A stretch of 15,138 nt of DNA from a virus: UHGV virus genome UHGV-0077319; one strand, given 5' to 3'. A model generated the notes under the pieces. It was not told the DNA's origin and searched no databases. It saw only the letters and a list, made by a program, of their open reading frames with translations. The number at the start of each line of letters is the position of its first letter. Positions within the stretch are counted from its first letter, which is position 1. Shown piece by piece: positions 1 through 15,138 of this stretch. A program made the translations under genes and the position numbers.

Positions 1-1100
1 GGCCATGGAACAGGCACACCAACAGGTAATGCAGAGCCTTCTCCCAAACCAAGGTATGCGAGAAGACCAGCTACATCCTTTCCACTCAAATTAGTCAGCG
101 TATTGTCCAGCGGTTGTTTACCTGCCAGCGCATTAAGCATTGTCGTGGCAAAGTTCGGGTCATTCCCCAGCGCCGCAGCCAGTTCGTTCAGTGTATCCAG
201 TGCAGCAGGTGCAGACCCCACCATTGCCGCAATTGCCGATTTCACAAAAGCCGTGGTGGCAATCTGTGTATTGTTAACCGACTGTGCGGCAGTGGGGGCT
301 GTTGGCGTTCCGGTGAGTGCCGGACTTAACAGCGGCGCTTTCAGTGCCAGCGCATTGTTAATGGTGGTACTGAATTTCGGGTCATTATTAATGGCAGCGG
401 CAATTTCTTTCAGCGTATCCAGTGTGGCTGGCGCACCATTAATAAGGGCCATCAGTGCCGCCTGAACAAACGCGGTGGTCGCAATCTGCGTGGTGTTATT
501 CCCCTCCGCTGGCGTTGGCGCTTTGGGTGTTCCGGTCAATGTCGGGCTTTCTTTGGGGGCATACTGTGAATGCGGGTCCGGTGCGGCAAGATGTTTTGCC
601 ATCTTATCATCCACGAACACCTTCAGCTCCAGTACCTTATCATCCACATACTTGCGGGTTGCCAGCACGACGGCAGGGTCGATTTTCAGGGTGATATTGT
701 CCGTGCTGCTGGTAATCAGCACCATGCGCACGGTCTGGGTGCGCCCGCTGCCTTCAGCCAGTTGCGGCTTATAGCTTTCCGGGCAGTTGCCTACGGCAAT
801 CAATGCCCCGGACTCATCAAACAGACCCACTTCACGTATCCACCAACCACCCTCATTTTCAGGGATCACCTGTTCAGCAATAATCTGGCTGCTGTTCTGC
901 GGGTCGATATAGAGCATATTCAGCGCAGCCCGGCGTTTCTCATTTACCAGTGCCGTCTGCTTTGCGTCCGGCGTCGGCAATGCTCCGCCGCCATCGCCCA
1001 CCGCCATATGGGTAATTTTTAGCGGCACACCGAGCGCGGCGGCGCTGGCAAGTTTCGCCGCGCCAATATCCGTCAGCAGGGTATAAAATTTTGTGCTCAT
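1..1100 (-). CDS. H: tail fibre protein gpH, N-terminal part (3' end lies beyond the window start)
   Basis: Minus-strand ATG at 1100 (reverse complement of cat 1098..1100). My hand translation begins MSTKFYTLLTDIGAAKLA and resembles the P2 gpH N-terminus. No minus-strand stop down to position 1. Overlaps the gpI stop by 4 nt. Confidence 0.8.
   Translation of the reverse strand, partial: MSTKFYTLLTDIGAAKLASAAALGVPLKITHMAVGDGGGALPTPDAKQTALVNEKRRAALNMLYIDPQNSSQIIAEQVIPENEGGWWIREVGLFDESGALIAVGNCPESYKPQLAEGSGRTQTVRMVLITSSTDNITLKIDPAVVLATRKYVDDKVLELKVFVDDKMAKHLAAPDPHSQYAPKESPTLTGTPKAPTPAEGNNTTQIATTAFVQAALMALINGAPATLDTLKEIAAAINNDPKFSTTINNALALKAPLLSPALTGTPTAPTAAQSVNNTQIATTAFVKSAIAAMVGSAPAALDTLNELAAALGNDPNFATTMLNALAGKQPLDNTLTNLSGKDVAGLLAYLGLGEGSALPVGVPVPW
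117..495. repeat. two diverged tandem copies (~220 bp period) inside the tail fibre gene
   Basis: The segment starting near 120 (tgccagcgcatt...gtatccagtg...ggcaatctgtgt) recurs near 340 (tgccagcgcatt...gtatccagtg...cgcaatctgcgtggtgtt), with shared anchors visible by eye. The plus-strand shadow ORF 103..465 shows the same internal repetition. Confidence 0.7.
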
Positions 1101-2949: not shown

Positions 2950-3524
2950 ACCGGGCCTCCGGTGGTGTCGCCGCCTTTCAGGACGCCAGTATGCTGATGC
3001 GCATCAACCACGATCCCGTTAGAACTCATTGCACCGCCGCCCTGGGTAACGCCACCATTGATCACCACCTCACTGTTAATACGCGTGCGGTCAGCCTCCA
3101 GTACAAACTCACTGGTTTTCAGGGTGATATTGTCAGTGGCCTCAATGACCATAGATTTGATGCCCCTGACATACCAGAGCCCGGTGGCGGGTTCGTATTC
3201 AAACCAGCCACCGTCAGGATGTTCTGTCACGCAGGCGTCCGCCGACGTCGACGGTGGAGCGAACTGATTCGAATAGACAGCGGGCAGCGCAAAGGCAGTT
3301 TCCAGATTACCGCCCAGACTCAGCAGCACCACCTGCTCACCTTCCGATGGTCGCCACCATGTCCGGGCATTTCCTGCACGCAGCGTCAGCCAACTGATCC
3401 AGTTAGTTTCAAGCTCGCCCGTTTTCACTCGGCAAAGCCAGTTTTCCCTGTCCACTTCGGTGACTACCCCAGTGCGGATCAGGTTGGTGATAAGGCGCAT
3501 GATTTCGGTAAGTTGTGCGTTCAT
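2946..3524 (-). CDS. V: baseplate spike/assembly protein gpV
   Basis: 192 aa. MNAQLTEIMRLITNLIRTGVVTEVDRENWLCRVKTG...TWWRPSEGEQ is similar to P2 gpV. This is the first gene of the V-W-J-I-H operon. Confidence 0.85.
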   Translation of the reverse strand: MNAQLTEIMRLITNLIRTGVVTEVDRENWLCRVKTGELETNWISWLTLRAGNARTWWRPSEGEQVVLLSLGGNLETAFALPAVYSNQFAPPSTSADACVTEHPDGGWFEYEPATGLWYVRGIKSMVIEATDNITLKTSEFVLEADRTRINSEVVINGGVTQGGGAMSSNGIVVDAHQHTGVLKGGDTTGGPV

Positions 3525-3611
3525 GGGGCTGATTCTTGCATGCTAAAAGAAATAAGATCTCCTGTTCAAAAATGTATGAACTCCTATACAATGTATTTCC
3601 CATGAAAATTT
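3525..3611. promoter_or_regulatory. divergent control region between gpV (minus) and the moron ORF (plus); contains a TGT-N12-ACA dyad
   Basis: TGTatgaactcctatACA at 3573..3590 fits the TGT-N12-ACA Ogr/Delta activator-site consensus of P2 late promoters. A sigma70-like pair TTCAAA (3565..3570) and TACAAT (3587..3592) with 16 nt spacing reads toward the plus strand. Confidence 0.35.
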
Positions 3612-4214
3612 ATGGAATTGCTAAAAGTGAACGAAGATAATCAACCTGAAAAAGAAACCAATATCTTGAATAAATGGTCACCCAGGGACTTACTTAATCC
3701 TTTTACTGAACTCTTTACAATATTCACATCAAAAAATGATAACGAAGTGGAAAACGCAGCTGAAAATTTTCAGATGCGAATTCAAAAACTAATATTCTTC
3801 ACATTAACTTTACTACTTCTTACGAAAGGTTTTTTTGAAATACTACAAACTCTAACTTTTTTAGAACAACCCCTTATTCTTCATTTCCCACTCTTAAATG
3901 AACCTTTAGTGTTTTATAAAGACCATGGCATTGCTGGTAGCCTTTTAAGAATAAAATCACTAGTATTTGTAGCCAATGCATTAGCTCTTTCATGCGGTTT
4001 TCAGCTGGCATACATGCTTGTAACAAAGGGACCAGATGAAGCCGTAGAACCAATTATGTTGGGTATCGCCTCTGCTATTCTTTTAATTCTTTCTGATAGT
4101 TCTCCTGCAGAATGGGGGCTGGAGAAATCCTTAGCTATATTCTTTTTAATAATAAGCATCCCAATTTTATATTGGTCATCAAGAAAAATGAAAAAAGATA
4201 AAGATAACGAATGA
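3612..4214 (+). CDS. hypothetical polytopic membrane protein (AT-rich moron at the S/V junction)
   Basis: 200 aa ORF on the strand opposite to the late genes, in markedly AT-rich DNA with AT-rich codon usage. At least four hydrophobic helices (LIFFTLTLLLLTKGFF, ALSCGFQLAYMLV, IMLGIASAILLILS, LAIFFLIISIPILYW). No clear SD; the true start could be a downstream Met (for example MRIQKL). Confidence 0.55.
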   Translation: MELLKVNEDNQPEKETNILNKWSPRDLLNPFTELFTIFTSKNDNEVENAAENFQMRIQKLIFFTLTLLLLTKGFFEILQTLTFLEQPLILHFPLLNEPLVFYKDHGIAGSLLRIKSLVFVANALALSCGFQLAYMLVTKGPDEAVEPIMLGIASAILLILSDSSPAEWGLEKSLAIFFLIISIPILYWSSRKMKKDKDNE

Positions 4215-4240
4215 CACATTATTTTTCTTTATAGGTATAT

Positions 4241-4687
4241 TTATCTAAATAGCCAGCACAGAATAGCGTCACGGGTAACTATTTCCACTTCATCACTAAC
4301 GCCTAGTAGTCTACGCTCTGCATAGCGGACCTCCGGTCCTCTTCGACTGACGCGATCACGCAGGCCGTAATGGTGAACACGGGCAATGCGCTGTACCTTG
4401 CCTTCAAACTGCACGCTGGCAGAGTCGGCGCTGGCGGCAGTTTTCAGGTATTTTGTGGTGCGCAGCTTTGTAAACATCTGACGTTTGATGCGCCCCTTTT
4501 TGCTGCGTGCTGTTACCCGTCGCGGCTCATAACTGCTGCCATCTGGATTGCGCTGCATCCTGATGTTCTGCTGCTGTGTCCGGCGCAGTTCCTGCGCCAG
4601 CTGGCGCATCATGCGGCTTCTGGTGGCTGGCTCCAGATTCGCCAGCAAGGCACTCAGCCAGTCGTCCACTTTCTGCAGTTCAGCCAC
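4241..4687 (-). CDS. S: tail completion / virion morphogenesis protein gpS
   Basis: 148 aa ORF in the S position, last gene of the O-to-S operon. Size and position match P2 gpS (about 150 aa). Confidence 0.75.
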   Translation of the reverse strand: MAELQKVDDWLSALLANLEPATRSRMMRQLAQELRRTQQQNIRMQRNPDGSSYEPRRVTARSKKGRIKRQMFTKLRTTKYLKTAASADSASVQFEGKVQRIARVHHYGLRDRVSRRGPEVRYAERRLLGVSDEVEIVTRDAILCWLFR

Positions 4688-5132
4688 GTTTCACCGTCCA
4701 CATTTCTTCAGGTTCATCAGGTTCCGCTATAGCTTCAACGCTCGACACACTGCCGTCAGTGCTGACCAGCACACGCTCCGTCAGTTGCAGGTTCAGGCTG
4801 ATATCACAGACATCGTTGCGCAGAATATCCACCTCAAAGGTGAATAGCTTTTCCCGTAACGCCGGGTTATTGATGGCATCGGGCTGGTTATCACGCAGCC
4901 ACAGCAAAACCGGGGCCATCAACAGATTCTGGTCACCACTGAAATCCTCTATCACCACGTTCAGGGTGTAGCGGTACTCCCATGACATGGAGCTGGCCCC
5001 CGTGGCAACCAGCGAACCGTTATCCACAAACAGATGCAGTTTGTCCGGGTTATTACGGACATAAGGCACTGCTTTATTAATGGCGTGGCGCAGGGATTGT
5101 GGTTTGTTCACTATTTCGCTCCTGACACGCAA
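4680..5132 (-). CDS. R: tail completion protein gpR
   Basis: 150 aa. NPDKLHLFVDNGSL...RYTLNVVIEDFSGDQNLLMAPVLLWLRDNQPD parallels P2 gpR (NPDMLRIFVDNGSI...RYTLNVIVTDFTGD...VPVLAWLRENQPD). Confidence 0.8.
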   Translation of the reverse strand: MRVRSEIVNKPQSLRHAINKAVPYVRNNPDKLHLFVDNGSLVATGASSMSWEYRYTLNVVIEDFSGDQNLLMAPVLLWLRDNQPDAINNPALREKLFTFEVDILRNDVCDISLNLQLTERVLVSTDGSVSSVEAIAEPDEPEEMWTVKRG

Positions 5133-5364
5133 TAATCATGTCCACTTTGTCGGCACAGACCGCCCAGGCGGCCTCCGTTTCATCCAGCAACGCGTTCAGA
5201 TCACCGTTAGTGCGCGGCGCTGCCTGATCCAGTCGACACGGCGTCACCCGCGGACAACCACTGACGGTAAGCTGCACCTCCGGTAAATGCCGGACGTTTC
5301 CGCAGCCGGATAATGTCAGCAGGCAAAGGAGTATCAGCCCAGCGGCGTAAATCCTCGTTCTCAC
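5077..5364 (-). CDS. lysC: LysC-like o-spanin (outer-membrane lipoprotein), out of frame within and beyond lysB
   Basis: 95 aa with a signal peptide and lipobox (LILLCLLTLSGC). It starts inside the lysB frame and extends past the lysB stop, the embedded/overlapped spanin architecture of Rz/Rz1 and P2 lysB/lysC. The exact start is uncertain. Confidence 0.55.
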   Translation of the reverse strand: MRTRIYAAGLILLCLLTLSGCGNVRHLPEVQLTVSGCPRVTPCRLDQAAPRTNGDLNALLDETEAAWAVCADKVDMIIACQERNSEQTTIPAPRH

Positions 5365-5635
5365 GTTTCAGTTCCTCGATCCGGCGTTGTCGTTGTCTCA
5401 GCTGTGCGCTGGTCTGTTCTGCTTCGGCATAGAGCCGCGCCTGCTCCCGGTTATTGGTTTCATTCAGAATGGACAGGCTGATAAGCTGGCTGTTGCTCTT
5501 TGCCAGTGCCTGGCTTTTGCTCTGCAGCTCGTTTGCCTGCGTGCTGATGGTCTGGCTGGCATCAGCCAGCCGCCACGTCTGCCAGCCCAGCGCCGCCAGT
5601 AATAACGCCAGCACAACCAGCAGCAACCGGTTCAT
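5207..5635 (-). CDS. lysB: LysB-like i-spanin (Rz-like)
   Basis: 142 aa. N-terminal TM helix MNRLLLVVLALLLAALGW followed by a charged coiled-coil-like segment (EQARLYAEAEQTSAQLRQRQRRIEELKRENEDLRR). Sits in the lysis-cassette position. Confidence 0.7.
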   Translation of the reverse strand: MNRLLLVVLALLLAALGWQTWRLADASQTISTQANELQSKSQALAKSNSQLISLSILNETNNREQARLYAEAEQTSAQLRQRQRRIEELKRENEDLRRWADTPLPADIIRLRKRPAFTGGAAYRQWLSAGDAVSTGSGSAAH

Positions 5636-6009
5636 GCTGCTACCTGTTGCGCCATCTGATTACGGGTGATCCAGAAGGCAATAACGGTCAGTAGATAAAA
5701 GACTAGGGTAATAGCCCACCCCGTCCATGCGAGACTTACAACAATCAGCAATCGCATCACCCAACTGATAAATACGTTTTCTTTTCGGGTAATTGTCTTC
5801 AGCAAAGATGCCCTTAACTCCTGCCAGAGCGGGCCATTCTGAATTAACGCAGCCAGTGCTACCGGAATTACCGCCCATGTCAGCAAACAGGCTACCCAAA
5901 CGCCGGACGCTGCCAGTACCGGAAAGATCCCCTGCGGATACACCATTGCTGCGATTAACAGCGCCATCCATAACATCAGAAACAGTCCGCTGATTAATTT
6001 CTTTTTCAT
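5632..6009 (-). CDS. lysA: LysA-like multi-pass membrane protein (putative lysis regulator/antiholin)
   Basis: The track ORF 5632..6081 has an unlikely upstream start. MKKKLISGLFLMLWMALLIAAMV begins at the ATG at 6009 (cat 6007..6009). About 126 aa with four hydrophobic helices. Position is as for P2 lysA. Confidence 0.65.
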   Translation of the reverse strand: MKKKLISGLFLMLWMALLIAAMVYPQGIFPVLAASGVWVACLLTWAVIPVALAALIQNGPLWQELRASLLKTITRKENVFISWVMRLLIVVSLAWTGWAITLVFYLLTVIAFWITRNQMAQQVAA

Positions 6010-6010
6010 T

Positions 6011-6523
6011 TCAGTTTGCTCCCTGTAAACACCAGGCCATCTCCCGCGCACGGCGGTTATCCAGCCCCTGATTAAACACACCTTTTACATAAACCCAGCG
6101 CGGCAACTGTCGGCACGCATCCGCCCAGCGCCGCTGATTGAGCAATTTCACCAGCGTGGAACTACAGGCATTGCCCGTCCCCACGTTGAAGGCAAACGAC
6201 ACCGTAGCGTCATACACCTTCTGTGGTGGCTGTTGCTTCACACACCTTTCCAGTGCCCGCTCCACACGCAGCACGTTGGAGATCAGCCCTTCTGCTGCCT
6301 GTCGTTCCGTGATTGTTTTGCCGGGAATGACGCCCGATGTATTACCAATGCCGTCGGTCCAGACACCCGCGCTGCACTGATACGGCTGCAGACGACAGCC
6401 TTCGTAATCGGCAATCAGTTTCAGCCCCTCCACGGAGGTGTGAAGCTGCTGAAAACCCGGCAGCGTGGCAGCAATAGCCAGCACGACCCCGACAAGGCAG
6501 CGTTTAACGATTGATGGATTCAT
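6011..6523 (-). CDS. phage lysozyme (T4/P21-type, GH24-like) with a probable N-terminal SAR signal-anchor-release domain
   Basis: 170 aa. Weakly hydrophobic Gly/Ala-rich N-terminus (VKRCLVGVVLAIAATLPG), then a lysozyme core (EGLKLIADYEGCRLQPYQCSAGVWTDGIGNT; FNVGTGNACSSTLVKLLN) resembling the P21 R21 SAR endolysin. Confidence 0.85.
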   Translation of the reverse strand: MNPSIVKRCLVGVVLAIAATLPGFQQLHTSVEGLKLIADYEGCRLQPYQCSAGVWTDGIGNTSGVIPGKTITERQAAEGLISNVLRVERALERCVKQQPPQKVYDATVSFAFNVGTGNACSSTLVKLLNQRRWADACRQLPRWVYVKGVFNQGLDNRRAREMAWCLQGAN

Positions 6524-6719
6524 AGTCCTCCCGCGAGATCTGCCCGTCGCGCAGAAGCTGGTAGGCTTTGTGTTTGTAGTACCAGTTGATAGCCAGCATC
6601 AGCACACCAATCATCAGGCCGCCCAGCGTTGAGGCATCCTTGATGGACAAATCGCCCAGCCAGGCCAGCACGACGGCGATGCAATACGTGATAAAGGCGC
6701 TGATTCGCTCAAGCGTCAT
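6504..6719 (-). CDS. small holin, two predicted TM helices (pinholin-like)
   Basis: 71 aa. Two hydrophobic segments (ISAFITYCIAVVLAWL and LGGLMIGVLMLAINWYY) and a charged C-tail. Lies immediately upstream of, and overlaps, the lysozyme gene. Confidence 0.65.
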   Translation of the reverse strand: MTLERISAFITYCIAVVLAWLGDLSIKDASTLGGLMIGVLMLAINWYYKHKAYQLLRDGQISREDYESINR

Positions 6720-6722
6720 AAT

Positions 6723-6926
6723 TCAGTCCCATAGCTGGACGGTCTGCACGGTGGTGGTTGTCGGAATGTCCGGCAGCTCCACCTGCAGCCCGTGAGGTAA
6801 AAAGGGGCCGTATTCGGCAAGCCCCGGATTTGCCTTCAGTACCTGCTCCGTGACACCCTGCGTGCGCCCGTAATGACGCCAGCAAAGCGCGTCCACCGTG
6901 TCATACTGATGCGCACGCACTTTCAT
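6723..6926 (-). CDS. X: tail protein gpX
   Basis: 67 aa, the same size and position as P2 gpX (between L and the lysis genes). Confidence 0.75.
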   Translation of the reverse strand: MKVRAHQYDTVDALCWRHYGRTQGVTEQVLKANPGLAEYGPFLPHGLQVELPDIPTTTTVQTVQLWD

Positions 6927-7390
6927 CAGATAAGCTCCACTGTGCAGTGCGGCGCATCCTGTACCCGGCTGATGGCCCAGCGGGCGTCACGCCACAAATC
7001 ACCGCTTGCTTCCGCCTGTTCCTCGCCCCGCTTCACACCGGACGCCGTGGCGTCATAGTCCTGATAACGCTCATTGAGCATGGCGCGTGCCCAGCAGTAA
7101 ACCGCGTTGAAATAGTGATGAATGCGCTCACTTTTGCCGTCCAGCTGTTCCGCCGGAACCTCAGCCAGCGACGCATACCCCAGCATCTGCTGACGTCTGC
7201 GAAACTCATACAGCTCTGCGTTGACCTCCGAAATTGCCGACAGCGCAACCTGCTTTAAACGCGGCTGCGTCACCGTGCCGTCAGTGCGCATGACACTGCG
7301 AAACTCCGACAAGTCCACATCAGGCCAGAACGGCGTATTTCTGATGATTTCCGCCTGTTCCGGTACCTGTTCTGGCGCAACAAACTTCAT
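6926..7390 (-). CDS. L: head completion/stabilisation protein gpL
   Basis: The track ORF extends to 7453. The ATG at 7390 (MKFVAPEQ...) is preceded by AGGAGA on the minus strand (reverse complement of tctcct 7398..7403) and gives a P2 gpL-sized product. IIRNTPFWPDVDLSEFRSVMRTDGTVT is similar to P2 gpL. Confidence 0.8.
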   Translation of the reverse strand: MKFVAPEQVPEQAEIIRNTPFWPDVDLSEFRSVMRTDGTVTQPRLKQVALSAISEVNAELYEFRRRQQMLGYASLAEVPAEQLDGKSERIHHYFNAVYCWARAMLNERYQDYDATASGVKRGEEQAEASGDLWRDARWAISRVQDAPHCTVELI

Positions 7391-12979: not shown

Positions 12980-13026
12980 TACATTTACATCACTTAATAG
13001 GACATCCATCGCTCAACACATAATAA

Positions 13027-13056
13027 GAAAAAAAACTACGGCACTACCGTGCCGTA
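13027..13056 (-). terminator. rho-independent terminator for the minus-strand cargo operon (possibly weakly bidirectional)
   Basis: Perfect 7 bp stem acggcac (13038..13044) / gtgccgt (13049..13055) with a 4 nt loop. On the minus strand the hairpin is followed by a U8 tract (A-run 13028..13035 on the plus strand). Lies directly after the last cargo gene. Confidence 0.6.
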
Positions 13057-13064
13057 ACAAATTA

Positions 13065-13559
13065 TCACTTTAAGAATTTTTTCTGATAAGACTCATCAAT
13101 TAGAGATTTAATTATTTTCGCCCTTTTTGACACTAATACACTAATTCTTGTCCTTTGACTTTTATCATACTCCTGTGCTTTTTCAATATTAGATGTAGCA
13201 TCTTTGAATAAATCAGCAATCAAAGGTTTATAGTCACCTTCGATATTAATGCGTTGTTTTAGATGATTCAACCACCGCTCGGTCTCCGCAAGAAGTGCTG
13301 TTATCTCATTTTGAAATGACATTGCATCAATTTCTTTTGAATCTCCCGGTATCCAAAACTTTCTTGATGCAGATTCAATTTCCTTTAAATTATCTGAAAC
13401 ATTTTTTACAATTGACCATGTTTCACTCCTCTTTTGCAACGCACGGGAGTTTCTATATACAAAAACCCAACCAATCAAGGCTGTTAGAATTGCAATCACA
13501 CCTGAACTAGCAAGGTATTGTAATAACCGCAGATAAACCGGAAGTTCATCCATGAACAT
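13065..13559 (-). CDS. cargo gene C: single-pass membrane protein with coiled-coil-like soluble domain (hypothetical; candidate effector)
   Basis: AT-rich ORF. Candidate starts are GTG 13562, ATG 13559 (overlapping the gene B stop as TGATG) and ATG 13553 (GGAG 8 nt upstream). N-terminal hydrophobic helix LLQYLASSGVIAILTALIGWVFVY, then a charged helical region. The terminator follows. Confidence 0.6.
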   Translation of the reverse strand: MFMDELPVYLRLLQYLASSGVIAILTALIGWVFVYRNSRALQKRSETWSIVKNVSDNLKEIESASRKFWIPGDSKEIDAMSFQNEITALLAETERWLNHLKQRINIEGDYKPLIADLFKDATSNIEKAQEYDKSQRTRISVLVSKRAKIIKSLIDESYQKKFLK

Positions 13560-13879
13560 CACTCCTTTTTAGCATCAGAAATATATCCCCATATACTATC
13601 CTTGAGGAAATCCAAATCAGTAAATATTTTTAATTTTTTCCTAATTATAGCTTTATCTATATTATTTGTTCTATAAAGTCCACCAAACGCCTCTTCCAAG
13701 AATGAAGAACCATAACCCATAGCACCATCAAGGTACACGTGCACCTCATCATAATCTTGGATGGCTTTCAAAAGATACTTTTCACGGAAACGTTGTCCAT
13801 TATCAGGACCATCCTCATCATAGCGGCCATAGGGAACATCTGAAAAATCTTCAGCAACATGTATCTCTTTGATTTTCAT
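13559..13879 (-). CDS. cargo gene B: small acidic protein, STAS-like (anti-sigma-antagonist-like) by motif; hypothetical
   Basis: 106 aa. ATG at 13879 overlaps the gene A stop (ATGA). VHVYLDGAMGYGSSFLEEAFGGL resembles the strand-Ser-helix core of STAS/SpoIIAA-like domains. The assignment is from motif memory only. Confidence 0.55.
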   Translation of the reverse strand: MKIKEIHVAEDFSDVPYGRYDEDGPDNGQRFREKYLLKAIQDYDEVHVYLDGAMGYGSSFLEEAFGGLYRTNNIDKAIIRKKLKIFTDLDFLKDSIWGYISDAKKE

Positions 13880-14943
13880 TCAGCACCTCTCAAACTTACA
13901 TTCCATTGAATAAGGGTTCCACCTATGGAGTATGGCAGATCAAATTTATCTTCAACATTATTTTCAGCATCATAAGAATATCGTCCCATTCCACTAAAAA
14001 TATGTAACTGCCCCTCAGGGTTATCTACAACATACCTTTTCATATCAGGTAATCCTTTACCATGCTTCTGACTATTCATTCTTGTCTCACCATACTGTAC
14101 AGCCGCGAATATTTTATCAGAATCCGTCTTAGGATTAAATATCTGAGCGATAAATGTGAAAAAGTCTTTTTTAACCAATGTAACTGGGATACCTTCTCCC
14201 ATATCATACACCATCAAAAATAGTTGTTCTTCGACTTTGTGTGCCAATATCCACCATCTTTTACCAATGTCCTCAATAAATTCAGAGAACTGTTCTTCAT
14301 TTGAATACGCATGTAGACCAACATTGCTAATAGATTCAGTTAATGCTGCATATAATTTCACACCATCCGAAGCGGAAATCTTACCTTCATAAATGGTATC
14401 TTTTATATAACGTAGAATATTTTTAATTTTTTGTCTTGCTTCGGCACTTTCATGATCATCTCTAGTTTTGCCTGCAACAGCGGAAACAATTTCCATTGAA
14501 TTAAGCTTATCTGCAGCTATACGCTGAAACCCTGTAATCCCCCAAATACCACATATTTTAAACCAGTTATTTGCCCTGGGTGAACCGCACGTAGTAATAG
14601 AAATTATATTTTTATCTTTTGTTTGCCTTTGTAAAAAGTCAATATGTGCATACAATACGATTACTGCACATGCTTTCAGAGATTTTGTATTTCTGAAATC
14701 TATTAAAATTTTCTCACCATCATTGATGTAATCTCTGATTAAAGTGATAAACTCTATAAATAGTTTGTAATTTTTAGTATTAAATAAGTCCAATGACGCA
14801 GGCGCGGGTATTCTCACACGAGAGAATACCCGCATGGGCTGTAGCATCCGTCTTCCACCAGAAAGCTTTCTTGACTCCCGCTTCGCAATCTTCCTTGCTC
14901 TGATCAAAGAATGTTCAATTTGTTCTTCAGTTAGCCGCTTCAT
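13876..14943 (-). CDS. cargo gene A: protein with an N-terminal domain of unknown function and a C-terminal GHKL (histidine-kinase-like) ATPase domain
   Basis: The track ORF starts at 14988, but the ATG at 14943 (MKRLTEEQ) has GAGG 7 nt upstream. Bergerat-fold motifs appear in the canonical order: N-box ESISNVGLHA, G1 box YDMGEGIP (DxGxG), G2 box HGKGLPD (GxGL). The N-terminal ~200 residues are unrecognised. Confidence 0.65.
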   Translation of the reverse strand: MKRLTEEQIEHSLIRARKIAKRESRKLSGGRRMLQPMRVFSRVRIPAPASLDLFNTKNYKLFIEFITLIRDYINDGEKILIDFRNTKSLKACAVIVLYAHIDFLQRQTKDKNIISITTCGSPRANNWFKICGIWGITGFQRIAADKLNSMEIVSAVAGKTRDDHESAEARQKIKNILRYIKDTIYEGKISASDGVKLYAALTESISNVGLHAYSNEEQFSEFIEDIGKRWWILAHKVEEQLFLMVYDMGEGIPVTLVKKDFFTFIAQIFNPKTDSDKIFAAVQYGETRMNSQKHGKGLPDMKRYVVDNPEGQLHIFSGMGRYSYDAENNVEDKFDLPYSIGGTLIQWNVSLRGAE

Positions 14944-15138
14944 ATCCTTTCCTCGATAGTTGTTGAAGCTTATCAGTTCACGCAACAACTACAAACATCT
15001 ACCTGCTATCTTAAAGCAACAATTTGAAAGAACATTGAAAATCATAGTATCTGTTTGTAAACAAACGACTGTTTCTATACCTTGCGCGCGCTCGTATCCC
15101 CGCCACGCCTGCCCGCTTTATGTAGTGGTTTTCATGCA

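Follow-up and report, generated by a model that had tools for sequence, protein, structure and literature searches.

The window, by which we mean the whole 15,138-nucleotide stretch of virus genome UHGV-0077319, carries a five-gene lysis cassette on the minus strand from 6719 to 5077, and the gene order is X, holin, endolysin, lysA, lysB/lysC, R (Table 1). A preliminary description, made from the letters of the DNA and a list of its open reading frames, had placed a lysis cassette at these positions; the cassette is confirmed, with all five reading frames present at the coordinates that it gave. Each of the five proteins scores above the curated cutoff of its family, and the scores lie far beyond chance. 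A scan of positions 3400 to 7000 for promoters and terminators returned counts equal to the shuffled expectation, with no internal signals of note.

Table 1. Coordinates of the lysis genes, their sequence features and the flanking tail genes
Feature	Positions	Strand	Basis
Tail protein X	6723..6926	-	Pfam Phage_tail_X, 2.2e-34; conserved upstream boundary of the lysis module
Class II (two-TMD) holin, HP1 holin family, 71 aa	6504..6719	-	Pfam, PHROG, hydropathy
GH24 lysozyme, P1 Lyz type, putative SAR endolysin, 170 aa	6011..6523	-	Pfam, structure match
Putative SAR segment, C9-F24 (CLVGVVLAIAATLPGF), with Cys9	6452..6499	-	Hydropathy; cysteine alignment
Catalytic and caging motif, E41-G-C43-x6-C50-x5-T56	6356..6403	-	Alignment with Lyz E42/C44/C51/T57
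LysA-type four-TMD membrane protein, 125 aa	5632..6009	-	phrog_162, NF038378, hydropathy
LysB, i-spanin, 142 aa; N-terminal TMD, then periplasmic coiled coil	5207..5635	-	TIGR03495, phrog_89
LysC, o-spanin lipoprotein, 95 aa; GTG start past GAGGA	5077..5364	-	NF038368, Pfam LysC
LysC lipobox, L18-S-G-C21	5302..5313	-	Six-phage alignment
Tail completion protein R	4680..5111	-	Pfam P2_Phage_GpR, 1.4e-46; conserved downstream boundary

The holin scores 36.7 bits over residues 6-57 (E = 4.3e-09) against Pfam PF16080 (Phage_holin_2_3, the HP1 family), above the gathering threshold of 28.8 that defines membership in Pfam, and identical genes are named "HP1 family phage holin" by PGAP. Of the PHROG families, phrog_175 among them, it matches only the holin family phrog_20 (1.9e-26). 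The endolysin matches Pfam PF00959 (Phage_lysozyme; 4.5e-40) and phrog_7 (1.1e-67); its ATG lies 3 nt past GGGAGG, and the gene overlaps the end of the holin gene by 20 nt. LysA falls into phrog_162, the family of P2 LysA (1.8e-43), and scores 122.9 bits against NCBIfam NF038378 (cutoff, 40). Its hydropathy profile has four to five peaks, corresponding to about four TMDs, and its ATG is found 9 nt past GGGAG.

The last two genes of the cassette form an overlapped two-component spanin like P2 LysB/LysC, with a TMD in the i-spanin, a lipobox cysteine in the o-spanin and a +1 frame relationship between the genes. LysB scores 172.6 bits against TIGR03495 (cutoff, 92.75) and 1.6e-46 against phrog_89; its TMD spans residues 4-20 by hydropathy, and it is 33% identical to P2 LysB. 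LysC scores 121.4 bits against NF038368 (cutoff, 27), matches Pfam LysC at 9.4e-15 and phrog_456/952, and is 42% identical to its P2 counterpart. The lysC gene, which had been described as lying out of frame, beginning inside lysB and running into R, does exactly this: it is read in the +1 frame of lysB, shares 158 nt with that gene and also overlaps R, whose start is most likely the GTG at 5111 past AGGAG, giving an overlap with lysC of 35 nt. Conservation of the lipobox supports this reading frame, as G20 and the lipobox residue C21 are invariant in six phages (the window, Fels-2, P2, 186, PsP3, and phiCTX); C37, C43, and C70 are likewise invariant.

Affinity of the cassette with P2 and Fels-2

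The lysis region of P2, Y-K-lysA-lysB-lysC, resembles that of the window in its location between X and R, in the families of LysA, LysB, and LysC, and in having lysC in the +1 frame and running into R. The holin and the endolysin differ: Y is a 93-aa class I holin with three TMDs, and K, which lacks an N-terminal TMD, is a soluble transglycosylase similar to lambda R (PMC3091744). The preliminary description had given gpY as larger and gpK as not of the SAR type, and both points are correct, since Y gives three hydropathy peaks over its 93 residues and K has no N-terminal hydrophobic segment. Alignment to P2 Y and K places the window proteins in other families (phrog_20 and phrog_7 versus phrog_175 and phrog_90). 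In BLASTP comparisons with P2, the holin reaches only 28% identity over 54 aa; for the endolysin there is no meaningful alignment.

These differences had been interpreted as a mosaic replacement, in which a P2 backbone exchanged its Y/K pair for a P21- or P1-like pair of pinholin and SAR endolysin and kept the P2 lysA, lysB, and lysC. The pair does differ from that of P2 at the level of PHROG families, and the LysA, LysB, and LysC families (phrog_162, phrog_89, and phrog_456/952) are common to both phages. Module exchange does happen among such phages, because both pair types occur within the single genus Eganvirus: 186 and PsP3 have Y/K, and EtG and MDG94-186 have the HP1-type holin with a SAR lysozyme. 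Nevertheless, a recent event of this kind in the window is improbable. The backbone is Fels-2-like rather than P2-like: the flanking genes are 39-61% identical to those of P2 at the amino acid level (L 42, X 61, R 53, and S 39) but 89-94% identical to those of Fels-2, which itself carries the same pair. Even the three genes thought to have been retained are distant from P2, with identities of LysA, LysB, and LysC ranging from weak to at most 42%, and GC content stays at 0.52-0.58 across 5077-6719, like that of the backbone and without a break. The same holin and endolysin families are present in all 80 of the 80 closest IMG/VR loci, which argues against a recent mosaic event; these loci were collected by gpX and are close relatives only (X at least 91% identical), and the count therefore describes uniformity within the clade rather than frequency across the family. 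Thus, the pair differs from that of P2 but is native to its own backbone. The difference is an old one between clades, any ancient replacement may have gone in either direction, and such clade-level differences of the lysis module among P2-like phages have already been documented (PMC3091744).

Relatives of the window with the same gene order, in which lysA is optional, include the Salmonella prophages Fels-2 and SopEPhi (Felsduovirus), at approximately 85% nucleotide identity, and P2-like phages of E. coli and Klebsiella, at 96-98% (96.7-97.8% to 500465-1, vB_EcoM-813R9, 4LV2017, and KP12). The Fels-2 proteins are 80% (holin), 92% (endolysin), 76% (LysB), and 84% (LysC) identical to those of the window, and the RefSeq annotation of Fels-2 already records a putative holin with two TMDs and a resemblance to P1 Lyz. 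Klebsiella phage KP12 and phage Cartapus have an identical holin (100%), and that of SopEPhi is, like the Fels-2 one, 80% identical. For KP12, whose cassette is 96.7% identical to that of the window, a 2023 paper (PMC9902359) described an architecture like that of P2 and a SAR endolysin resembling Lyz. Among 5,426 complete E. coli genomes, 1,031 (19%) have this cassette, and the P2 Y/K type is found in 28%. As the standard set of lysis genes in a prophage group that is very common, the cassette is genuine but unremarkable; the literature already covers it, and it carries little weight as a discovery. We consider it very probable that it is the native late-operon lysis module of a Fels-2-like member of the Peduoviridae, located between X and R and operating by the mechanism proposed below.

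Within this clade, the varying, mosaic element is lysA. Although the preliminary description was right about the family of this gene, it had counted as a retained P2 part what is the variable part of the clade: beside holin and endolysin genes that are 98-100% identical, lysA is present, replaced or absent in closely related loci. In Fels-2, for example, its slot is occupied by an unrelated 124-aa four-TMD gene, frameshifted in the reference, where the window has a phrog_162 LysA. This variable presence fits an accessory role; LysA is an optional module and a putative antiholin or lysis-timing factor.

The N-terminal segment of the endolysin

The endolysin has a single N-terminal hydrophobic stretch, C9-F24, preceded by K7 and R8. 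It was initially read as a SAR segment, and it does look like one: it is a weakly hydrophobic TMD containing Cys9, and the cysteines and the catalytic triad of Lyz are in register with those of the window protein. P1 Lyz, the prototype SAR endolysin with disulfide isomerisation (PDB 1XJT/1XJU), is the best match among solved structures (1xjt, E = 3e-26, approximately 36% identity). The two share the GH24 fold, the cysteine of the SAR segment (Cys9, aligned with Lyz Cys13), the EGC caging cysteine two residues past the glutamate and the catalytic Cys/Thr register of an E-x8-C-x5-T triad. The window segment is shorter and less Gly-rich than that of Lyz, with 29-38% small residues versus 47%. HP1 Lys, another GH24 enzyme, is similar as well (34% identity, 2.9e-27); its N-terminal TMD contains Cys11, at the position of Cys9, and it has the EGC...C motif. 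Across representatives that bear both a TMD and the EGC...C motif, 29 of 30 have a cysteine in or beside the N-terminal TMD. Many homologues without a TMD also carry EGC...C; therefore, its presence by itself does not identify a SAR-regulated enzyme, and we discarded the EGC caging cysteine as a SAR-specific marker. The SAR cysteine, the caging cysteine and the catalytic triad are all conserved, which makes a SAR domain more likely than a signal peptide that is cleaved off.

On the one hand, there are two ways in which the endolysin might not be a SAR protein. It could be cytoplasmic, starting from the GTG at codon 14 (157-158 aa), as in two public annotations (Fels-2 RefSeq and phage 813R9); the late start removes the SAR segment, and the endolysin thus looks cytoplasmic. 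Alternatively, its N terminus could be a cleaved Sec signal peptide, for the hydrophobic stretch contains an AXA-like motif, A16-I17-A18 (AIA|A), and on sequence alone signal-peptidase cleavage is conceivable. On the other hand, the ATG has the GGGAGG Shine-Dalgarno sequence, and the 13 codons upstream of the GTG show conservation at the protein level, both in Fels-2 and in homologues of 40-80% identity, most of which are annotated with 169-171 aa; the N terminus MNPSIVKRC... is kept down to approximately 40% identity. Cleavage at A18 would leave an h-region of only about seven residues, and a conserved cysteine in the hydrophobic segment would serve a purpose only in a protein that keeps this segment, as P1 Lyz does. 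We therefore give little credence to either version and regard the endolysin start in several public annotations as placed 13 codons too late.

Databases also hold apparent fusions of neighbouring cassette genes. Many matches are to 296-aa Lys-LysA proteins (PF00959 plus a LysA domain), which we read as indel or frameshift artefacts and not as programmed products; their junctions differ (for instance, RRAR|RWPGV versus REMA|CVYREQ), and nearly all are singletons. A 235-aa holin-endolysin "fusion" was read in the same way.

The holin and the proposed course of lysis

As first described, the 71-aa holin has two transmembrane helices: hydropathy gives two peaks, at residues 6-22 and 29-45. The loop between them is acidic (GDLSIKDAS), the residues past TMD2 are basic (KHK), and the N-terminal tail is short and uncharged (MTLER), resembling that of S21-68. 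From the positive-inside rule, we infer an N-in, C-in topology. The holin gene has a single start: an in-frame TGA stands two codons before it, and the N-terminal region contains no second Met. A dual-start holin/antiholin motif is thus lacking, and the upstream stop rules out a dual-start antiholin within the gene. Distant relatives in Yersinia and Erwinia phages begin with MGLKMEK or MGLTMEK.

The suggestion that this is a P21-type pinholin does not hold at the family level, as the protein belongs to the HP1 family. Against the P21 S family (Pfam PF04971, Phage_holin_2_1) it scores 23.2 bits, under the cutoff of 26, and BLASTP against S21 gave no alignment at E <= 100; the S21 query was checked and is 100% identical to that of phage 21 (OL657228). 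R21 matches the endolysin (3hde, 1.2e-17). The two systems have features in common: S21 is also a two-TMD holin of 71 aa that adjoins a GH24 SAR endolysin, and its TMD2 has a small-xxx-small pattern. However, S21 has a dual start (71/68) and a much less hydrophobic TMD1, and R21 has a catalytic Asp, no SAR cysteine and hence no Cys switch of the window type.

A SAR endolysin needs depolarisation only, and the holin gene adjoins and overlaps that of an endolysin with a SAR-like N terminus; the holin may therefore be a small-hole pinholin, and such a function is plausible. P1 itself combines a SAR endolysin with a holin of the conventional kind, and such a pairing is thus no proof of a pinholin. 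The window protein could likewise be a conventional large-hole class II holin whose depolarisation simply frees the SAR endolysin, as with P1 LydA and Lyz, a serious possibility that falls just short of probable. TMD1 matches a stable TMD in hydrophobicity, its mean Kyte-Doolittle value of 2.12 (35% Gly/Ala/Ser/Thr) exceeding the 1.74 of TMD2 and, by far, the value for TMD1 of S21, which gives no hydropathy peak on the same scan; the releasable TMD1 that is the hallmark of S21 is therefore not evident. The low score against the P21 S family, the lack of a BLASTP alignment to S21 and the single start point in the same direction. Yet TMD1 is similar in hydropathy to the SAR domains of Lyz and R21, and we rejected hydropathy as a discriminator between pinholins and canonical holins, as the values of known SAR domains resemble those of ordinary TMDs on either of the scales applied.

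Other observations speak against a conventional holin. Besides the S21-68-like tail, TMD2 contains a small-residue motif, S30xxxG34xxxG38, that is comparable to G40xxxS44xxxG48 of S21 when read from the sequences. The HP1 holin, archetype of the Phage_holin_2_3 family, which is named for it, has a weakly hydrophobic TMD1 (mean Kyte-Doolittle 1.44, 47% Gly/Ala/Ser/Thr); by BLASTP it is only 21% identical to the window holin (E = 0.19). Finally, in four Peduoviridae genera the holin always goes with a Cys-SAR lysozyme, despite holin identities of 21-37%: the two genes adjoin in HP1 and in Yersinia, Erwinia, and Klebsiella Peduoviridae, and the pair is also found in Eganvirus and Duonihilunusvirus. 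In HP1, the cassette follows the tail sheath and tube genes instead of X and has no lysA. Nothing relevant turned up when the literature was searched for experimental work on the Fels-2 holin or its HP1 family. On balance, we slightly favour a small-hole pinholin, without calling it probable. More tentatively still, the HP1-family holin might represent a second pinholin lineage, independent of S21, that evolved in concert with Cys-switch SAR lysozymes throughout the Peduoviridae, with the optional LysA acting as a stand-alone antiholin or as a regulator of SAR release in place of the dual start.

By homology with the systems above, lysis would proceed as follows. The lysozyme would be exported by Sec and, as with P1 Lyz, would remain inactive while its SAR segment anchored it in the inner membrane, with the catalytic Cys50 locked in a disulfide with Cys43. 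The holin would build up and then collapse the membrane potential at a programmed time, upon which the SAR segment would leave the membrane for the periplasm. Attack of Cys9 on the Cys43-Cys50 disulfide would free Cys50 and complete the E41/C50/T56 triad, leading to degradation of the cell wall. LysB in the inner membrane and the lipoprotein LysC in the outer membrane would then fuse or disrupt the outer membrane. The four-TMD LysA would influence timing without being essential and is probably an antiholin, the role suggested for P2 LysA; P1, which belongs to another phage family, has a different holin and antiholin, LydA and LydB. The HP1-family holin, a candidate pinholin, is among the most abundant holins of enterobacterial genomes.

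Composition of the lysis cassette

The lysis cassette occupies 6719-5077 on the minus strand of the window, has a flat GC content and comprises five genes that are tightly packed or overlap, with tail gene X on one side and the tail-completion gene R on the other. All five open reading frames, their family matches and the lysC overlaps were recovered here, so the preliminary description of the sequence was accurate: the cassette is real, its components were rightly identified, and its arrangement is a known and very frequent one. The RefSeq record of the Salmonella prophage Fels-2 notes "similarity to Lyz [P1]" and "two transmembrane domains; putative holin", and PGAP applies the labels lysozyme, DNZ54_00345 family protein, HP1 family phage holin and LysB. 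A 2023 paper on phage KP12 assigned a 96.7%-identical cassette to the P2 lysis-cassette architecture with overlapped spanins, and reported that its endolysin structurally matches P1 Lyz with a conserved signal-arrest-release (SAR) domain (PMC9902359); the RCIP0057 annotation reads "SAR-endolysin".

Coordinates of the cassette, its flanks and the AT-rich islands in the window
Feature	Position	Strand	Remarks
Tail gene X	6926-6723	-	cassette boundary
Holin	6719-6504	-	71 aa; HP1 holin family (Pfam), phrog_20
Endolysin	6523-6011	-	170 aa; GH24 phage lysozyme, PF00959 4.5e-40; phrog_7 1.1e-67
LysA	6009-5632	-	125 aa; ~4 TMDs; phrog_162 and NCBIfam NF038378
LysB	5635-5207	-	TIGR03495, 172.6 bits
LysC	5364-5077	-	NF038368, 121.4 bits
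Gene R	5111-4680	-	tail completion; likely start GTG 5111 after AGGAG
First AT-rich island	3525-4240		between gpV and gpS
ORF of first island	3612-4214	+	200 aa, multiple TMDs
Second AT-rich island	12980-15138		downstream of portal gene Q
ORFs of second island	13065-13562, 13559-13879, 13876-14988	-	three, overlapping

LysA, LysB and LysC are P2-type, as had been stated: they belong to the same families as their P2 counterparts, with 42% identity for LysC, 33% for LysB and resemblance at the profile level only for LysA. LysB and LysC match the P2 spanin pair at the equivalog level and have the same overlapped architecture. Just as described earlier, lysC is out of frame, begins inside lysB and enters R; it is read in the +1 frame relative to lysB from a GTG preceded by GAGGA, the overlap with lysB is 158 nt, and the gene extends 35 nt into R. 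In LysB, a TMD at the N-terminus is followed by a periplasmic part that resembles a coiled coil. Conservation of the LysC lipobox (LSGC), proposed as a check of the frame, was confirmed in an alignment of the window, Fels-2, P2, 186, PsP3 and phiCTX, where its Gly-Cys and three more cysteines are invariant. LysC/Rz1 is annotated as a short 52-56-aa form in 813R9, EtG, RCIP0057 and MDG94-186.

Endolysin and holin

The holin and endolysin differ from the P2 pair Y/K, as the preliminary description had stated. P2 Y, which has 93 aa and three hydrophobic peaks, falls in phrog_175, whereas the window holin is in phrog_20; P2 K, which lacks an N-terminal hydrophobic segment, falls in phrog_90, whereas the window endolysin is in phrog_7. 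Y/K are thus not themselves of the window type. BLASTP aligned the holin with Y over only 54 residues (28% identity) and gave no meaningful alignment of the endolysin with K.

Among solved structures, the endolysin matches P1 Lyz best (1xjt, 3e-26), followed by R21, the SAR endolysin of phage 21 (1.2e-17). Its Cys9, Glu41, Cys43, Cys50 and Thr56 align with Cys13, Glu42, Cys44, Cys51 and Thr57 of Lyz. In the 2005 work of Xu et al., the membrane-tethered form of Lyz reportedly has its catalytic cysteine caged by a disulfide, and the SAR-domain cysteine is said to free it once the enzyme is off the membrane. The hydrophobic N-terminal stretch of the window endolysin, C9-F24, is preceded by K7 and R8 and is borderline hydrophobic (~+0.9 kcal/mol on the Hessa scale, summed over 16 residues). 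It contains an AIA motif at which signal peptidase could possibly cleave. However, a cysteine lies in or beside the TMD in 29/30 of the representatives (50% identity level) that combine an N-terminal TMD with the EGC...C motif, including ~17 sequences at 40-63% identity, and such conservation would serve no purpose in a cleaved signal peptide. The evidence therefore favours a SAR domain, as first proposed, over a cleaved peptide. A caveat is that the EGC...C motif is also present in many TMD-less homologues.

GGGAGG precedes the ATG at 6523, and Fels-2 and further homologues conserve the 13 residues that this start adds; the shorter GTG start chosen in the annotations of Fels-2 (RefSeq) and 813R9 is therefore probably wrong. 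That internal start (158 aa in Fels-2, L003 16022-16057; 157 aa in 813R9, L001 3384-3422) leaves out the conserved N-terminal residues MNPSIVKRC... together with half of the SAR segment (window 6485-6523).

The holin is small, with two predicted TM helices, as reported initially; its two hydropathy peaks, together with a loop that is acidic and a C-terminal flank that is basic, imply a class II topology, with both termini predicted to be inside. Its assignment to the P21 type did not hold at the family level: it clears the Pfam cutoff of the HP1 holin family (36.7 bits vs 28.8; phrog_20 1.9e-26) and falls below that of the P21 S model (23.2 vs 26), and pairwise comparison with a verified sequence of S21, the phage 21 pinholin, detected no similarity. 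No dual start was found in the gene. That it functions as a pinholin is a serious, if tentative, possibility. Its constant pairing with SAR lysozymes, its short, uncharged N-terminal tail, the SxxxGxxxG motif within TMD2 and the weakly hydrophobic TMD1 of the family archetype, HP1, are compatible with this, but TMD1 of the window holin is more hydrophobic than its TMD2, and in P1 a SAR endolysin works with an ordinary holin. Pinholin or not, depolarisation by the holin is likely the trigger. Distant HP1-family holins (L088-L091, genes 2195-2416, from Yersinia, Erwinia and Klebsiella Peduoviridae) start with MGLKMEK, MGLTMEK or MGLSMEK, with two Met codons spaced by four residues, reminiscent of a dual-start holin/antiholin motif; no such motif is present in holins of the window and Fels-2 type.

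AT-rich islands and other observations

The slot between gpV and gpS, occupied by orf30 in P2 and by nothing in Fels-2, contains an AT-rich island (GC ~0.33 vs ~0.56 in the backbone). Its 200-aa protein had no match in Pfam, PHROG, NCBIfam or PADLOC, nor did its ORF in a megablast of 5426 complete E. coli genomes. About 56 clusters of homologues, all "hypothetical", come from Citrobacter, Klebsiella, Cronobacter, Serratia and Pantoea; a 50%-identical one in Cronobacter adjoins integrase/primase/AlpA island genes and an Mrr-like nuclease. We regard this ORF as candidate prophage cargo that may act in exclusion or defence. The second island, which we take to correspond to the old/tin end of the P2 map, encodes a 370-aa protein with a weak HATPase_c (GHKL ATPase) match, a 106-aa protein matching STAS-like DUF4325 (3.5e-12), on which there is almost no literature, and a 165-aa protein with no match; PADLOC found nothing in the island. 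Twenty complete E. coli genomes carry the island at 100% identity, annotated as hypothetical or STAS-like, and it may be an uncharacterised defence-type operon.

The left end of the window (1-128) shares short, high-identity segments with unrelated phages in their tail-fibre regions (HK97 stf at 1-58, phi456 at 38-128, Citrobacter phage Omnitron), suggesting the tail-fibre mosaicism that is usual at the H/G end. Singleton "fusion" proteins are numerous in public assemblies (database proteins P0001, P0012, P0014 and P0053): holin-endolysin (235 aa), endolysin-LysA (296 aa) and endolysin with a PF05954 domain (288 aa). Rather than real fusions, these are most likely indel errors or pseudogenes, since their junctions vary between sequences.

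Exchange of lysis genes among P2-like phages

The cassette had been interpreted as a mosaic replacement of the holin/endolysin pair inside a P2 backbone, with lysA, lysB and lysC retained. This evolutionary reading is overstated, and P2 is the wrong frame for it: the flanking genes are 89-94% identical to those of Fels-2 vs 39-61% to those of P2 (L 42, X 61, R 53, S 39). Identities to Fels-2 within the cassette are 80% for the holin, 92% for the endolysin, 76% for LysB and 84% for LysC. The DNA of the window shares ~85% identity with Fels-2 and SopEPhi across three quarters of its length, and 96-98% with the E. coli/Klebsiella P2-like phages 500465-1, 813R9, 4LV2017 and KP12. Of the 80 IMG/VR loci closest in X protein (>=91% identity), 80/80 carry the window-type holin and all except one truncated contig the window-type endolysin; none has P2 Y/K.

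Elsewhere, the same pair, an HP1-family holin and then an overlapping GH24 lysozyme starting M-x-SIVKRC, is found in Duonihilunusvirus (Yersinia) and some Eganvirus (EtG, MDG94-186, RCIP0057), with a more divergent version in Haemophilus HP1. Y/K is the pair of 186 and PsP3, which also belong to Eganvirus, and still different holin/endolysin sets are carried by phiCTX and the Burkholderia P2-like phages (PMC3091744). Thus, the X-to-lysB slot is a known exchangeable module of the family, and the window pair, present in 1031/5426 complete E. coli genomes vs 1498 for Y/K, represents one of the two states common among enterobacteria.

Inside the Fels-2-like clade, the real local mosaicism lies instead at the lysA slot (window 5632-6009; Fels-2, L003; IMG/VR loci L008-L087). 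DNA similarity to Fels-2 ends exactly at lysA, and window 5636-6003 has no match there in DNA or protein. Beside 98-100% identical holin and endolysin genes, the slot holds the 125-aa window-type gene, a variant ~40% identical to it, the unrelated Fels-2-type gene (124 aa, four TMDs) or no gene, so that lysB directly follows the endolysin. In the Fels-2 reference (L003 15165-15540), the 124-aa gene is frameshifted and split into two annotated ORFs. Given these four states, lysA is an accessory, swappable module, which fits the non-essential timing role annotated for it in the P2 record.
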